This document shows positions 12,605-35,754 of a stretch of 64,000 nt of DNA, in pieces (positions within the stretch are counted from its first letter, which is position 1; every line of letters starts with the position of its first letter). Source of the DNA: Escherichia coli (GTDB lineage: Bacteria > Pseudomonadota > Gammaproteobacteria > Enterobacterales > Enterobacteriaceae). Under the pieces are notes generated by a model. The model ran no database searches, was not told the origin of the DNA, and worked only from the letters and a program-made list of their open reading frames with translations. The DNA is taken from assembly GCF_046105845.1 (NCBI RefSeq), contig NZ_CP151004.1; one strand, 5' to 3'. Position numbers and translations under genes: made by a program.

Positions 12605-13693
12605 ATGCCTCACAATCCTATCCGCGTGGTCGTCGGCCCGGCTAACTACTTTTCACATCCAGGAAGTTTCAATCACCTGCACGATTTTTTCACTGATGAA
12701 CAGCTTTCTCACGCGGTGTGGATCTACGGCGAACGCGCCATTGCTGCGGCGCAAACAAAACTTCCGCCAGCGTTTGAACTGCCAAGGGCAAAGCATATTT
12801 TGTTTCGCGGCCATTGCAGCGAAAGCGATGTACAACAACTGGCGGCTGAGTCCGGTGACGATCGCAGCGTGGTGATTGGCGTCGGCGGCGGCGCACTGCT
12901 CGACACCGCGAAAGCCCTCGCCCGCCGTCTCGGTCTGCCGTTTGTTGCCGTTCCGACGATCGCCGCCACCTGCGCCGCCTGGACACCGCTCTCCGTCTGG
13001 TATAACGATGCCGGACAGGCGCTGCATTATGAGATTTTCGACGACGCCAATTTTATGGTGCTGGTGGAGCCAGAGATTATCCTCAACGCGCCGCACCAAT
13101 ATCTGCTGGCGGGGATCGGTGACACGCTGGCGAAATGGTATGAAGCGGTGGTGCTGGCTCCGCAACCAGAAACGTTGCCGCTAACCGTGCGGCTGGGGAT
13201 CAATAATGCGCAGGCCATTCGCGACGTCTTGTTAAACAGTAGCGAACAGGCGCTGAGCGATCAGCAAAAACAACAGTTAACGCAATCATTTTGCGATGTG
13301 GTGGATGCTATTATTGCTGGTGGTGGGATGGTCGGTGGTCTGGGCGATCGTTTTACGCGTGTGGCGGCGGCCCATGCCGTGCATAACGGTCTGACCGTTT
13401 TGCCGCAAACCGAGAAGTTTCTCCACGGCACCAAAGTCGCCTACGGAATTCTGGTGCAAAGCGCCTTGCTGGGTCAGGATGATGTGCTGGCGCAATTAAC
13501 AGAGGCGTATCAGCGTTTTCATCTGCCGACTACGCTGGCGGAGCTGGAAGTGGATATCAATAATCAGGTGGAGATCGACAAAATGATTGCCCACACCCTA
13601 CGTCCAGTGGAATCCATTCATTACCTGCCAGTCACGCTGACACCAGATACCTTGCGTGCAGCGTTCGAAAAAGTGGAATCGTTTAAAGCCTGA
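12605..13693 (+). CDS. ybdH: Iron-containing (glycerol dehydrogenase-like) hydroxycarboxylate dehydrogenase YbdH
   Basis: 362 aa ORF with the GVGGGALLD nucleotide-binding motif; synteny. Confidence 0.88.
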   Translation: MPHNPIRVVVGPANYFSHPGSFNHLHDFFTDEQLSHAVWIYGERAIAAAQTKLPPAFELPRAKHILFRGHCSESDVQQLAAESGDDRSVVIGVGGGALLDTAKALARRLGLPFVAVPTIAATCAAWTPLSVWYNDAGQALHYEIFDDANFMVLVEPEIILNAPHQYLLAGIGDTLAKWYEAVVLAPQPETLPLTVRLGINNAQAIRDVLLNSSEQALSDQQKQQLTQSFCDVVDAIIAGGGMVGGLGDRFTRVAAAHAVHNGLTVLPQTEKFLHGTKVAYGILVQSALLGQDDVLAQLTEAYQRFHLPTTLAELEVDINNQVEIDKMIAHTLRPVESIHYLPVTLTPDTLRAAFEKVESFKA

Positions 13694-13702
13694 CGTACAC
13701 AT

Positions 13703-13900
13703 TTAGCAGCAGCGCGCGCCGCCTTTTCCACCGTAGCGCGCGTCCTGCCGCTCACGGAAAAACTCCTCGTAGGTCATCGGCGTTTGATCGGGATGGTTAA
13801 CCCGCATATGTTCGACATAGTTGTCGTAATCAGGCATACCAATCATCAGCTTCGCCGCCTGACCTAAATATTTTCCGGCTTTTGCCAGTGAATCAAACAT
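13703..13900 (-). CDS. ybdD: Small protein YbdD (DUF466), partner of CstA
   Basis: 65 aa ORF immediately downstream of cstA on the same strand. Confidence 0.85.
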
Positions 13901-14052
13901 CAATACCTCCGGTAAACAGGTTGCTGATAGAGTGCATTAATAGCTATCAACGCGCTCGGTCAGTCCCCTCGCCCCACAGGAGAGAGGGTTAGGGTGAGGG
14001 GGAACCCTCGGCACCATGCCAACATTCGCCAACATCCCCCCTCACTCTGACT

Positions 14053-16158
14053 TTAGTGCGCGCCTTTCGCCTGCGCCACGATCTCTTCGACATTTTCCGG
14101 CATCGGCTCATACGGCGTTTCTTTCGCCGTTGGCTTCGGCTCTTTCAATGCCGCCAGTGCAGTCTTAATCGAGAACAGCGCCAGAACCACCACGACCACC
14201 ATAAAGAAGATGGTTAACCCGGCATCCAGACGGTTGTTGAACACCAGTTGCGCCAGTTGTGACTCAGTATACTGCGACGGAATATTGCCGCTGTCGATCA
14301 TTGCCTGGAACTTGTTAGCAATCGCCAGGAAGCCGACCTTCGCATCCGGGCTAAACGCTTTCTGCCAGCCAGCGGTCAGAGTACAAATCAGCAGCCAGGC
14401 CGTTGGTACCAGCGCCACCCAGGCGTAACGTTGACGTTTCATTTTGAACAGCACCACAGCACAGAGCATCAGCGCCATCCCTGCCAGCATCTGGTTGGCA
14501 ATACCAAACAGCGGCCACAAGGTGTTAATACCGCCCAGCGGATCGACCACGCCCTGATGCAGGAAGTAGCCCCACGCCAGCACGCACAGCGCCGTTGCCA
14601 GCAGGTTAGCAGGCAGTGAATCGGTCCTTTTCAGGCCCGGAGACACCACGCCCAGCAGATCCTGCAACATAAAGCGCGCAGCACGCGTACCTGCATCCAC
14701 CGCCGTCAGAATAAACAGTGCTTCAAACAGAATGGCGAAGTGATACCAGAACGCCACATCCATCATGCCGCCCAGCGCACCGTGCAGAATGTAGGCCATC
14801 CCCACCGCCAGGGTCGGCGCACCGCCCGCACGGGAAATGATCGACTGTTCACCCACTTCGCTGGCAATCTGGTTGAGCGTATCTGGTGTAATGCTAAATC
14901 CCCAGCTACTCACCACTTGCGCTGCAGAAGCGACCACATCCGCCGTCCCTGCCGGAGCCAGCACCGCCATCGGGCTGTTCATAGCGAAGTACACACCCGG
15001 ATCGATGATACAGGCGGAAACCAGCGCCATAATCGCTACGAAGGATTCCATTAACATCCCGCCGTAGCCGATAAAACACGCCTGCCCTTCGTTCGCCAGC
15101 ATCTTCGGCGTGGTACCGGAAGAGATCAGCGCATGGAAGCCAGACACCGCGCCACAAGCGATGGTGATAAACAGGAACGGGAACAGGTTACCGGTCCATA
15201 CCGGGCCAGTGCCATCAACAAATTTGGTCAGCGCAGGCATGGTCAGCGTCGGGCGCATGATCAGAATGCCTACCGCCAGACCGACGATAGTCCCGATTTT
15301 CAAGAAGGTTGAGAGGTAGTCACGCGGGGCCAGCAGCAACCACACCGGCAGCACCGCCGCCACGAAGCCGTAACCCACCAGCATCCAGGTCAGCTGCACG
15401 CCGGTAAAGTCAAAGTACGGTGCCCAGGTCGGACTTTCTGCCACCCAGCCGCCAGAGATAATGGCGAAAATCAGGAACACCAGGCCAATCACCGACACTT
15501 CGCCAATACGCCCCGGACGCAGATAACGCAGGTAGATCCCCATAAACAGCGCCAGCGGAATGGTGAACGCAACGGTATACGTTCCCCACGGGCTATGAGT
15601 CAGGGCTTTCACCACGATCATCGCCAGTACTGCAAGGATAATGACCATGATCATAAAGCAGGCCACCAGCGCTATCACCCCGGCGGTTGGCCCCATCTCT
15701 TCTTTGACCAACTCACCCAGCGAGCGACCATCGCGGCGCGTAGAAACAAACAGCACCATGAAATCCTGCACCGCACCGGCGAGAACCACCCCGGCGAGCA
15801 GCCAGATCATCCCCGGCAGGTAGCCCATTTGCGCTGCCAGCACCGGCCCAACCAGCGGACCTGCTCCGGCAATGGCCGCAAAATGGTGACCGAACAGCAC
15901 TTTCTTGTCCGTCGGCACATAGTCCAGCCCGTCGTTATGGCGCACCGCTGGCGTCATACGCGTCGGGTCAACCGCCAGCACATTTTTGGCGATATACAGA
16001 CCATAAAAACGGTAAGCGATCAGATAGATACAGACCGACGCCACCACAATCCACAGCGCGTTGATCTGTTCCCCACGATTTAAAGCAATATATCCCAGAG
16101 CAAATGCTCCCATTACAGAGAGCACTGTCCAGACGAGGTATTTCCCTGATTTGTTCAT
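14053..16158 (-). CDS. cstA: Carbon starvation protein A (peptide/pyruvate transporter)
   Basis: 701 aa polytopic membrane protein ORF recognised as CstA. Confidence 0.93.
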   Translation of the reverse strand: MNKSGKYLVWTVLSVMGAFALGYIALNRGEQINALWIVVASVCIYLIAYRFYGLYIAKNVLAVDPTRMTPAVRHNDGLDYVPTDKKVLFGHHFAAIAGAGPLVGPVLAAQMGYLPGMIWLLAGVVLAGAVQDFMVLFVSTRRDGRSLGELVKEEMGPTAGVIALVACFMIMVIILAVLAMIVVKALTHSPWGTYTVAFTIPLALFMGIYLRYLRPGRIGEVSVIGLVFLIFAIISGGWVAESPTWAPYFDFTGVQLTWMLVGYGFVAAVLPVWLLLAPRDYLSTFLKIGTIVGLAVGILIMRPTLTMPALTKFVDGTGPVWTGNLFPFLFITIACGAVSGFHALISSGTTPKMLANEGQACFIGYGGMLMESFVAIMALVSACIIDPGVYFAMNSPMAVLAPAGTADVVASAAQVVSSWGFSITPDTLNQIASEVGEQSIISRAGGAPTLAVGMAYILHGALGGMMDVAFWYHFAILFEALFILTAVDAGTRAARFMLQDLLGVVSPGLKRTDSLPANLLATALCVLAWGYFLHQGVVDPLGGINTLWPLFGIANQMLAGMALMLCAVVLFKMKRQRYAWVALVPTAWLLICTLTAGWQKAFSPDAKVGFLAIANKFQAMIDSGNIPSQYTESQLAQLVFNNRLDAGLTIFFMVVVVVLALFSIKTALAALKEPKPTAKETPYEPMPENVEEIVAQAKGAH

Positions 16159-18374: not shown

Positions 18375-19985
18375 TCAGGCTGATGCGCGTGACGCCAGCC
18401 ACTGACGTAATTGTTTTTTATCGACTTTCCCGACCGCCGTCAGCGGAAGTGAATCCACACACTCCACGCGATCCGGTAATTTAAATTCGGCAATACCCTG
18501 TTCACGCAGGAAACGACGCACCTGCACCGCGCGCAGCGGCTCTTTTACCACCAGATAAGCACAGCTTTTTTCGCCCATCAGCTCATCTTCCATGCTCACC
18601 AGTGCGGCGTAGATCACCGCCGGATGGCGCAGTAACAGGTTTTCGATCTCTTCGGCAGCGATCTTCTCGCCGCCACGGTTAATCTGATCTTTCTCGCGCC
18701 CCTGCACGGTGATGTAACCCTCTGGATCAATAGAGATCAGATCGCCAGAACAGTAAAAACCGTTGGCATCAAAGGCGCTGGCATTGTGCTGCGGGCTTTT
18801 GTAATAGCCGCGGAAGGTGTACGGACCGCGCGTCATCAGGCGTCCGACTTCCCCTTGCGGCAGTGGATTTCCTTCGGCATCGGCAACCCACACTTCATCG
18901 TCCGGACACATTGGATAGCCCTGGGTATGGATTATTTTCTCCGCGCTATCATCAAGTCGGGTGTAGTTCACCAGTCCTTCCGCCATGCCGAATACCTGCT
19001 GTAACTGGCAGCCAATCTCTGCGGGAATACGCGCCGCAAGCGTGGCAGAAAGACGTGCACCACCGACCTGTAACAGTTTCAGCGAGGCAAGCTGCGCCCG
19101 GCTTTCTCCTTCGGTCAGCGCCTGTAACCACAGGCTGACTGCGGGTGGCACCAGCGCGGTGACGTTCACCTGATGTTTTTCAATCAATGGGAAGCAGAGC
19201 GTGGCGCTGGGGTCGGCAGCCAGAACGACAGTGCCGCCAGCGAGAAATACTCCCAGCGATCCTGGCGAACTCATGGCGTAGTTATGAGCCGCCGGGATCG
19301 CGCACAGGTAGCGTGTCTGTTGTGTGAACTGACAAATCTCGACGCTACGACGCACGCTGTAGTAGTAGTCGTTATGAGTGCGCGGGATCAGTTTCGGTGT
19401 GCCGGTGGTGCCGCCGGAAAGCTGGAAATAGGCCACTTCATCAGCAGGTGACGGCGTGGCAGTAAAATCCTCAGCCGGATGGTTAATCGCATCCTGCAAA
19501 TTATGCTCACCGCTGTCGTTGTGCAGTTGCACCACGCGAATGGAGGAATGCTCTGCAACAAATGTATTGAGGAAATCATCCCCGCTAAACAGCGCATGCT
19601 GGCGATCGGCAATCAGTAACGCCGGTTCAATCTGGCTGGCATAGGCGTTCAGTTCACTACGCTGATGGCTGAACAGCGCCAGCACCGGCGCAACGCCCAG
19701 TTTCAGCAGCGCGAAAAAAGTAATGTAAAGTTCAGCGACGTTACCCAGTTGTACCAGCGCAGTTTCACCAGGTTTAATGCCCTGAAGGCGCAAACTACAC
19801 GCGAGGTTATCCGCCGCCTGATTCAGCTCCCGATAACTCAACTGCCGTTCGCCGTCGATGACCGCGATGCTGTCGCTTGCGGCATGACGGGTCAGAATGT
19901 CGGTCAGCGGCAAATCCTGCCAGTAGCCTTTTTCCCGATAGCGACGGGCAAACTCTTCCGGCCAGCGGGTGAATGGAATGCTCAT
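18375..19985 (-). CDS. entE: 2,3-dihydroxybenzoate-AMP ligase EntE
   Basis: ORF 18375..19991 trimmed to MSIPFTRW (536 aa); adenylation-domain motifs present. Confidence 0.95.
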
Positions 19986-21219: not shown

Positions 21220-21358
21220 TTTTCGGTCGCTAACCTAAAAGCAAACGCGCACTATGTCAACTCTTGAGGTAACGCAATCTGCAACTCGGGGTTGCATCTG
21301 GTTGTGGTTACAATGAAAATGAGAAGCATTAACTTCATTAATAACAGGAAGCTGATTT

Positions 21359-35652: not shown

Positions 35653-35754
35653 ATGCCGGATGCGGCGTGAACGCCTTATCAGGCCTACAAAAATCTTGTC
35701 AATTCAATATATTGCAGGACCACGTAGGCCTGATAAGCGTAGCGCATCAGGCAG
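35653..35754. repeat. Pair of inverted REP (repetitive extragenic palindrome, BIME-like) elements
   Basis: atgccggatgcggcgtgaacgccttatcaggcctac and the inverted gtaggcctgataagcgtagcgcatcaggca match the enterobacterial REP consensus. Confidence 0.85.

Follow-up and report, generated by a model that had tools for sequence, protein, structure and literature searches.

The BoxC-type palindrome between cstA and ybdD of Escherichia coli is probably an essentially ordinary RNA hairpin that fixes a 3′ end of the cstA message

In Escherichia coli, the large transporter gene cstA and its small partner ybdD run in the same direction and are separated by a spacer that holds an imperfect, GC-rich palindrome. 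What this palindrome is, and whether it acts as RNA or as a DNA site, is the question addressed here for one stretch of 64,000 nucleotides (contig NZ_CP151004.1; hereafter the window). The initial annotation had suggested that it could be an mRNA processing or stability element separating the two genes, or else the binding site of a regulator. The palindrome itself is present as described: the quoted string lies at 13960-14010 on the + strand, and its arms form the inverted repeat I3 (Table 1). The gap between the two genes measures 149–152 nt, with the ORF listing lengthening ybdD to a TTG at 13903, and the spacer is 100% identical to that of E. coli strain A22, from possum faeces. The 10-mer GGGTGAGGGG, allowing at most one mismatch, occurs 5 times in the whole window against 2.3 occurrences expected, a count that 10 of 100 shuffles reach; it is not enriched in the window, and 3 of its 5 matches cluster in a ~90-nt palindromic stretch of the spacer. 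A 32-codon ORF inside the spacer (13937..14035, -) is made of repeat sequence and is probably spurious.

Table 1 Features of the cstA–ybdD spacer and RNA 3′ ends at BoxC copies. Positions are those of the window unless K-12 is named.
Feature	Position	Strand	Particulars	Basis
cstA	14053..16158	-	co-directional with ybdD	ORF list, RefSeq annotation
cstA stop codon TAA	14053..14055	-	repeat-derived sequence starts 4-5 nt downstream	
cstA-ybdD spacer	13901..14052	-	mosaic of palindromic modules; order on mRNA: hairpin 1, BoxC inner hairpin, third AT-richer palindrome, ybdD ribosome-binding site	ORFs, A22 annotation, 12-form Escherichia alignment
Distal C-block CCCCCCTCACTCT	14036-14048	+	abuts cstA stop codon	
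Tandem 10-nt unit, two copies, GCCAACATTC / GCCAACATCC	14018..14037	+	in loop of hairpin 1	direct repeat D2
BoxC / PIT / TMECO type A / HPG1 copy	13952..14005	+ (G-rich strand)	~56-bp repeat; left flank GCGCTCGGTCAGT, CCCCTCGCCCC, ACA, GGAGAGAGGG, TTA, GGGTGAGGGGG, AAC	
G3 block GGGTGAGGGGG	13992-14002	+	preceded by loop TTA	
G2 block GGAGAGAGGG	13979-13988	+	preceded by loop ACA	
C1 block CCCCTCGCCCC	13965-13975	+		
Inverted repeat I3	13965-13974 / 13992-14001		arms ccctcgccc / gggtgaggg; 10 nt, 90% complementary	
Inverted repeat I2			G3 and distal C-block; 15 nt, 87% complementary	
Inverted repeat I1	13924-13963		AT-richer palindrome	
mRNA hairpin 1	13991..14048	-	5′ arm GAGUGAGGGGGG with BoxC G3-complement CCCCCUCAC; starts 4 nt after cstA stop; predicted -32 kcal/mol	I2, MFE structures, alignment
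mRNA hairpin 2	13966..13988	-	canonical BoxC hairpin, CCCUCUCUCC UGU GGGGCGAGGG	
mRNA hairpin 3	13924..13963	-	AT-richer; predicted -14.9 kcal/mol	I1, folds, alignments
Predicted cstA-strand RNA 3′ end	13955	-	transferred from K-12 632,098 (+)	spacer alignment
ybdD Shine-Dalgarno GGAGG	13906..13910	-	within ACCGGAGGTATTG, ahead of ATG at 13900	
ybdD	13703..13900	-	co-directional with cstA	ORF list, RefSeq annotation
BoxC 3′ end	K-12 624,567	-	M63; fepB-entC region	Adams table
BoxC 3′ end	K-12 3,781,065	+	LB 0.4; 'primary' 3′ end of lldD	Adams table
BoxC 3′ end	K-12 164,636	+	M63	Adams table
BoxC 3′ end	K-12 4,231,270	-	LB 0.4	Adams table

The GC-rich blocks are almost certainly those of a slightly degenerate copy of BoxC, an interspersed repeat of about 56 bp. 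The same repeat has been described as the PIT element, as the TMECO triplex motif (Holder 2015, PMC4666352) and as the HPG1 G-quadruplex motif (Kaplan 2016, PMC5100583); PIT is the name used by Maher's group (Hoyne/Maher 2000), and TMECO is equated with the BoxC repeat of the 1990s in the account that Holder gives (PMC4666352). Shared with the published element are the core of C-block, 3-nt loop, G-block, TTA and G-block, the 5′ flank GCGCNCGGNCAGTC and the 3′ GAAC, as well as an intergenic location and many copies per genome. When 16 K-12 copies were aligned with the window copy, the likeness ran about 14–16 nt leftwards (GCGCNCGGNCAGTC) and, on the right-hand side, as far as GAAC, so that the window copy carries both BoxC flanks, GCGCTCGGTCAGTC and GAAC. 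Holder gives a consensus and a table of 23 K-12 copies (PMC4666352), the commonest sequence being CCCTCGCCCCTTTGGGGAGAGGGTTAGGGTGAGGGG, 'type A mm'; from this the window copy differs in the variable 3-nt first loop and in one stem base, position 13981, which is A in the window and G in the consensus. The strict TMECO pattern, CCCTCNCCC N3-6 GGGNGAGGG N3 GGGNGAGGG (Holder 2015, PMC4666352), has no exact match in the window; the spacer copy is one mismatch away from this three-block pattern, with GAGAGAGGG rather than GGGNGAGGG in block 2 and ACA rather than TTT/TCT in the first loop. By its sequence it counts as a degenerate TMECO, a class whose existence Holder noted (PMC4666352).

Of 5426 complete E. 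coli genomes, 5407 matched a query with the 55-nt core, and the number of places in each had a median of 16 and reached 28 at most, which makes the element a dispersed repeat; the copy described here is the sole one in the window. Its K-12 orthologue is entry 19 (HPG1) among the HPGQ motifs in Table 1 of Kaplan 2016 (PMC5100583), where it reads 'cstA >>> 51 | 632058 | - | 108 >>> ybdD', 632058 being the midpoint, and the window and K-12 spacers match position by position across the element. BoxC has therefore already been catalogued at cstA–ybdD, and both its identity and its presence at this locus are known; with a median of 16 places per genome and an orthologue in a published table, the notion of a device specific to the cstA–ybdD pair falls away. 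The initial annotation was right that the palindrome is unlike REP: the consensus GCC(G/T)GATGCG(G/A)CG has no match in the spacer, the REP-like matches in the window lying elsewhere, at 18829, 35655-35684 and 43373, and K-12 carries in its spacer a REP that the window lacks. An Rfam scan of 13000-15000 (E <= 10) returned only sub-threshold matches, the best at 26 bits against a 71-bit threshold. These were to eukaryotic microRNA and snoRNA models, and we took them as chance.

Both genes are transcribed from the - strand and the G-rich strand is the template; the mRNA therefore carries the C-rich strand. On that strand the spacer is predicted to fold into three hairpins with a total of -66 kcal/mol (z = -3.25; 1 of 200 shuffles as good). 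The arms named in the initial annotation do make an inverted repeat, C1 with G3, of 90% complementarity, but the predicted fold prefers to pair C1 with G2 and G3 with the distal C-block. Hairpin 1 was found in every Escherichia spacer form examined. Hairpin 2, the inner BoxC hairpin, is predicted at -13.9 kcal/mol on the mRNA strand against -9.7 on the antisense strand. The substitution at 13981, G-to-A in DNA and C-to-U on the mRNA, breaks the DNA G-tract and yet keeps a G.U pair in hairpin 2; it is wobble-compatible on the mRNA strand only. Hairpin 3 spans 13936-13942 (ATTAATA), the site at which REP is inserted in K-12. The sequence around the ybdD Shine-Dalgarno, ACCGGAGGTATTG, is conserved in the alignment of all Escherichia spacer forms. 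The 10-nt unit in the loop of hairpin 1 varies between one and three copies among aligned E. coli strains; the two copies in the window score below the threshold of Tandem Repeats Finder, which reported nothing above threshold in the spacer.

Two kinds of known element bear comparison with these hairpins. Like an intrinsic terminator or attenuator, which the btsT–yjiX spacer resembles, the cstA–ybdD spacer presents a GC-rich stem-loop right after a transporter stop codon; unlike one, neither of its hairpins is followed by a U-tract. The tails after the hairpins read AACCCUCUC, GACUGACCG and CAACCUGUU, and a pattern scan of 13600-14300 found no GC stem-loop with a U-tract on either strand. REP/BIME elements are alike in architecture: both are palindromic, GC-rich intercistronic repeats that lack a U-tract, in spacers that are mosaics of such modules, with RNA 3′ ends a few nt past the stem, mapped for BoxC in K-12. 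BoxC has no sequence similarity to the REP consensus. REP/BIME elements in operon spacers, for example malE–malF, stabilise the upstream mRNA against 3′ exonucleases. BoxC is not known to have a RayT/TnpA(REP) partner.

RNA 3′ ends have been mapped in K-12. The curated Term-seq set of MG1655 lists a 3′ end at 632,098 (+) in its LB OD 2.0 sheet (Supplementary file 1; Adams 2021, PMC7815308), classed as 'orphan', 84 nt upstream of ybdD, with a low read count (1686) and present in one of three conditions. The listed string runs from 50 nt before the end to 10 nt after it, which places the end at ...GGGGCGAGGGGACTGACCGAG^CGCG. This is 9–10 nt past BoxC hairpin 2 on the cstA strand, in a strain whose spacer also has a REP 3′ of BoxC. 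K-12 thus contains an RNA whose 3′ end lies shortly beyond the BoxC hairpin. The set holds no other curated 3′ end in the K-12 spacer, the opposite strand included (Adams 2021, PMC7815308), and the TERMITe supplement has no entries for cstA or ybdD. A 3′ end beside a hairpin tells that an RNA species exists and says nothing of its weight for expression.

Searching the Adams table for BoxC strings (PMC7815308) yielded four further ends (Table 1), located 2–11 nt past the inner hairpin and all on RNA that reads the C-blocks first. The G-first type A and B strings and the C-first type B string used in this search occur in no 3′-end region listed there. With 3110 curated ends in the genome, chance alone would place about 0.1 of them in the BoxC windows (Poisson P about 1e-7). 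According to what Holder relates of the work of Maher's group (PMC4666352), PIT elements acted neither as terminators nor as promoters and left RNA polymerase unaffected; these nulls fit a role in RNA stability without being positive evidence for it. The BoxC, PIT, TMECO and HPG1 literature that we searched assigns no function to the repeat, which has gathered four names since 1992, and makes no mention of an orientation-specific link between BoxC and RNA 3′ ends.

The explanation that accounts best for these observations, and that we favour by a modest measure of belief, is that the BoxC copy acts at the RNA level through exonuclease-blocking hairpins that leave a cstA-only RNA. We have moderate confidence in the mechanistic part, namely that the action is on RNA and not at a DNA site. 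Just past the cstA stop codon, the C-rich mRNA strand would form two GC-rich hairpins; as they have no U-tract, they are unlike an intrinsic terminator. By analogy with REP elements in operon spacers, they would most likely block 3′-to-5′ exonucleases and leave a stable cstA-only RNA that ends about 10 nt past hairpin 2. Full-length transcripts would retain ybdD, together with the ribosome-binding site that belongs to it. In this way the hairpins would be expected to shield the transporter message and to fix the ratio of cstA to ybdD. The proposal of an mRNA processing or stability element thus gains indirect support, from the K-12 3′ end 9–10 nt past the hairpin with its four counterparts at other BoxC copies and, as described below, from orthologous spacers with strong stem-loops that fold better on the sense strand. 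In short, the spacer palindrome probably fixes a 3′ end of the cstA message as an RNA hairpin, and is essentially ordinary.

The main rival is a neutral or selfish passenger: a repeat with no function specific to the locus, in a spacer that tolerates palindromes, where a 3′ end is incidental to any stable hairpin. We regard this as a serious contender that is nonetheless the less credible account. Much of what it draws on is the variability of the locus, a polymorphic mosaic of palindromic modules. Among 5426 complete E. coli genomes, scored by coverage of at least 80% of the query, the K-12 form (BoxC as in the window with REP inserted 3′ of it; 182 nt) occurs in 3699 (about 68%), the window form (BoxC, no REP) in 373 (about 7%), and other forms make up the remainder of about 1350. 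An alignment of 12 Escherichia spacer forms resolves the modules. The B2 strains ST131 and Nissle have a 112-nt spacer that keeps hairpin 1 and the BoxC flank CCGAGCGTGTTGATAGC, is without the two inner BoxC blocks and without REP, and carries a different hairpin, GCCCTC..GAGGGC, then AUUUGUA. Strain Nord1 (127 nt) has hairpin 1 and REP only, as do E. albertii, E. whittamii and other Escherichia species (118–126 nt). The 125-nt 'hairpin + REP' form of L018, the GTDB 'E. coli' representative, is covered to at least 80% by none of the 5426 complete genomes, and is therefore absent or at least rare among them. A separate match in Nissle (H48) proved to be a REP at fiu–ybiX, not at the cstA–ybdD locus.

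As the most likely origin of the spacer we infer a palindromic BoxC pair whose cstA-proximal partner decayed to a single block. The cstA–ybdD locus displays the decay by a 'palindromic effect' that Holder described for paired sites (PMC4666352). When 14002-14052 was aligned locally with the right flanks of four intact BoxC pairs, only fepB–entC was significant, at an uncorrected p = 0.014. To the polymorphism and the loss of inner blocks in B2 strains, the neutral reading can add a copy number that ranges from 1 to 28 places per genome, flanking genes of no particular functional class (Holder 2015, PMC4666352; Kaplan 2016, PMC5100583), and the degenerating substitution borne by the window copy. 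The last of these also counts the other way, being wobble-compatible on the mRNA strand only, and the occurrence of BoxC 3′ ends in one RNA orientation only, far above chance, is likewise at odds with an inert passenger.

The orthologous spacers of other genera speak to the same choice. A search of genome contigs for YbdD gave 80 loci, from which 76 cstA–ybdD spacers were extracted. Most are 47–63 nt long with one GC-rich hairpin, and the hairpin sequences fall into several unrelated families, with a two-block CCCTCTCC..GGAGAGGG in Citrobacter and Salmonella, a REP-like GCCGGGTGGCGC in Leclercia and several Enterobacter, and others again in Klebsiella and Kluyvera. Fourteen spacers hold TMECO-like palindromes of three or four blocks, among them those of Enterobacter asburiae, E. 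cloacae, E. hormaechei, Pseudocitrobacter, Lelliottia, Phytobacter, Pluralibacter and Cedecea. Hairpin-free spacers of 14–20 nt occur three times (Kosakonia and one Enterobacter), which shows the stem-loop to be non-essential and is a further point for neutrality. The paralogous btsT–yjiX spacer of K-12 also holds a GC hairpin.

In 34 short orthologous spacers, aligned with MAFFT and analysed with RNAalifold, covariation analysis gave no consensus structure; restricted to the C-rich/G-rich subfamily, it produced a stem of 5 pairs that was poorly registered and hardly co-varied. Alignment does not serve to detect covariation here, since one hairpin has been replaced by another that is not its homologue; this analysis was therefore exchanged for folding of each sequence and a test of strand asymmetry. 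By this approach 73 of the 76 spacers reach a folding energy of -18.6 kcal/mol or lower, and z is <= -2 for 92%, in statistics that ignore kinship. All 81 spacers of at least 40 nt hold a hairpin of -8 kcal/mol or better, a prevalence counted in cstA–ybdD spacers only. The sense strand is the more stable in 65 of the 81, with 254 G.U pairs on the sense strand against 139 on the antisense; after control for composition the sense excess is -1.7 kcal/mol (55 spacers against 26; Wilcoxon p = 2e-4, again ignoring kinship). A U-rich tail follows a strong hairpin in only 11–17 of the 81. Palindromic repeats are known to build up in permissive spacers anyway, which calls for caution over hairpin prevalence.

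A stem-loop between cstA and ybdD is thus nearly universal across the family. Its presence in every spacer of at least 40 nt despite complete sequence turnover, together with a sense-strand stability bias beyond what composition predicts, argues against neutrality. The loss of pairing potential among orthologues that the initial annotation had named as refuting its idea is not seen: pairing is kept, with one entire hairpin swapped for another instead of paired bases co-varying. The conserved feature appears to be the stem-loop at this position, a slot that BoxC merely fills in most E. coli.

A second alternative looks to the other strand. The convergent gene hcxA (ybdH), on the other strand, stops 9 nt short of ybdD, and the spacer could be the region where hcxA read-through, antisense to ybdD, is stopped by repeat-rich sequence; we consider this improbable as the explanation of the palindrome. 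It finds a footing in a Rho termination region of K-12 that peaks at 631,994 (-), antisense to the last cstA codons, where the read count on the hcxA strand drops from 78 to 10 in the absence of bicyclomycin and from 120 to 69 in its presence, for a Rho score of 4.5 (Adams 2021, PMC7815308), although this position is coarse because the score uses 800-nt windows. RNA from the + strand of the window, which ends in CUCUGACUUUAGU, is likewise predicted to have a stable fold (-65 kcal/mol, z = -2.8). The spacer holds no curated Term-seq 3′ end on the hcxA strand (PMC7815308), and the pattern scan found no terminator. An hcxA 3′ end in this region would be compatible with the RNA-level explanation for cstA.

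A third alternative, which we rate slightly lower again, places the function in the DNA: the G-rich template strand would form an intrastrand triplex or a G-quadruplex and stall polymerases or promote local rearrangement. Oligonucleotides of the consensus do form a triplex in vitro, and loci with the motif are more rearranged among strains (PMC4666352); a switch between G-quadruplex and hairpin was followed by circular dichroism (Kaplan 2016, PMC5100583); and the cstA–ybdD locus itself is rearranged among strains, through gain or loss of REP, deletion of inner blocks and changes in copy number of the 10-nt unit. The window copy resembles HPG1 in its C-rich 5′ flank and its G-tract arrangement, and the K-12 copy, as entry 19, lies on the strand opposite the genes; the window copy differs in having only three G3 tracts (GG / GGG / GGG / GGGGG). 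It therefore falls outside the canonical G-quadruplex rule (four G3+ tracts, loops of 1–7 nt), and a regular-expression search found no match on either strand of the window spacer; nor does the copy fit the strict triplex pattern on either strand. The K-12 copy passes the G-quadruplex rule; it fails the triplex pattern, its block 3 reading GGGTGAGAG, and Holder's table of 23 copies does not include it. An in vivo DMS footprint and assays on double-stranded DNA did not reveal a stable triplex in cells (PMC4666352), and instability would be a side effect at the level of populations rather than a function of the host locus. For the window copy, the triplex or G-quadruplex reading is weak.

A regulator's binding site or an internal ybdD promoter is very improbable: cstA and ybdD are each given as single-gene units, '1/1' (RegulonDB in Kaplan Table 1, PMC5100583), which would require a ybdD promoter somewhere, but no sigma-70-like promoter was found on either strand of 13600-14300 by pattern scan, no transcription-factor motif was found in or within 200 bp of the elements at an E-value cut-off of 0.1 and only a low-probability MatP site match when it was relaxed to 1 (Kaplan 2016, PMC5100583), PIT elements lacked promoter activity in the work of Maher's group as cited by Holder (PMC4666352), and in K-12 the same BoxC sequence adjoins functionally unrelated genes.

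Returning to the RNA-level explanation, a broader proposal can be set beside it more tentatively. BoxC may determine RNA 3′ ends in a manner that depends on its orientation, and constitute a second REP-like class of mRNA-protecting hairpin, with the cstA–ybdD stem-loop a selected feature filled by lineage; we hold this general form to be possible rather than probable. BoxC transcribed with its C-blocks first would yield ends 2–11 nt past the inner hairpin, at cstA–ybdD setting the ratio of transporter to small-partner message, and different enterobacterial lineages would fill the stem-loop slot with whichever palindromic repeat was at hand. The pattern of BoxC ends, at five loci and in one RNA orientation, is a testable hypothesis for the repeat family.

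For annotation, the spacer element should be labelled a BoxC copy and not a candidate locus-specific regulator, which removes a false lead. Constitutive pyruvate uptake needs both CstA and YbdD (Hwang 2018), so that an element setting their ratio could have physiological weight; a microproteome preprint mentions cstA/ybdD solely for the CstA–YbdD complex. For the Enterobacteriaceae, the cstA–ybdD spacer offers a clear case of structure kept by the replacement of modules, be they BoxC, REP or other hairpins.

Two kinds of length variation were found among E. coli strains within the spacer that separates cstA from ybdD. Hairpin 1, the mRNA stem-loop immediately following the cstA stop codon, carries in its loop a 10-nt unit that is present in one, two or three tandem copies depending on the strain, with two in the window; this is a small copy-number polymorphism. 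Closer to ybdD, the REP-insertion site at 13936-13942 is likewise polymorphic: K-12 belongs to the ~68% of complete E. coli genomes in which a REP of ~35 nt lies between GATAGC and GCACTCT; the window possesses ATTAATA in its place, as part of an AT-richer palindrome (13924-13963). A 32-codon ATG-initiated reading frame within the spacer is probably spurious.

Features of the cstA-ybdD spacer and of the fepB-entC region, in window coordinates
Feature	Position	Strand	Remark
10-nt tandem unit, loop of hairpin 1	14018-14037		GCCAACATTC on +; GAATGTTGGC on mRNA
32-codon ATG ORF (MLANVGMVPRVPPHPNPLSCGARGLTERVDSY)	13937-14035	- (mRNA strand)	entirely within the repeat-derived spacer
hcxA/ybdD convergent ends and cstA 3' end	13693-13703 and 14053-14060	+	
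Empty junction CCTGTTATTAATGAAGTTAATGCTTCTC	21321-21348	-	fepB-entC, without the BoxC-pair segment

The spacer may also face transcription from the opposite direction. The stop of ybdD lies 9 nt from the end of the convergent hcxA (ybdH, 12605..13693, +), and in K-12 the hcxA-strand transcripts undergo a Rho-dependent drop at the cstA 3' end (PMC7815308); therefore, the whole hcxA 3' UTR would be antisense to ybdD and the cstA-ybdD spacer.

Elsewhere in the window, the fepB-entC intergenic region lacks a ~185-bp segment that is present in K-12 (~540-720 of locus L005), where it contains a palindromic BoxC pair, TMECO 7 and 8 of Holder (PMC4666352). Because strong Term-seq 3' ends at 624,680 and 624,567 (- strand) flank this pair in the K-12 fepB leader (PMC7815308), the indel may alter the fepB leader RNA.

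Parallels to the spacer architecture exist at other K-12 loci. The paralogous transporter/small-partner pair btsT-yjiX resembles cstA-ybdD in possessing a GC-rich spacer hairpin; its 49-nt spacer (L104, 575-640) holds AGCCCCGC UUCG GCGGGGCU with a U-rich stretch after it, an arrangement that looks like an attenuator or terminator. A further intra-operon BoxC copy, in the pstA-pstB spacer of pstSCAB-phoU (L010, ~596-630), adjoins a REP, a layout that parallels K-12 cstA-ybdD.

Two YbdD search matches in publicly deposited assemblies (L021 and L047) look like contamination or mis-binning: a 465-nt contig at 0.7x coverage in a 'Streptomyces sp. DH24' assembly, coding for a 98%-identical YbdD, and an Enterobacter-like cstA-ybdD locus in a metagenome-assembled genome labelled 'Bacillota bacterium'.

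The B2-phylogroup strains ST131 (L099) and Nissle (L103) retain a hairpin, GCCCTCTTAATTCAGGAGGGC, followed by ATTTGTA (301-412 of these loci). This hairpin is nearly alike to the lone hairpin of Citrobacter cstA-ybdD spacers (GCCCTCTCC..GGGGAGGGCGTTTGTA), and the shared type may represent the ancestral enterobacterial stem-loop, since lost from the lineage of the window.
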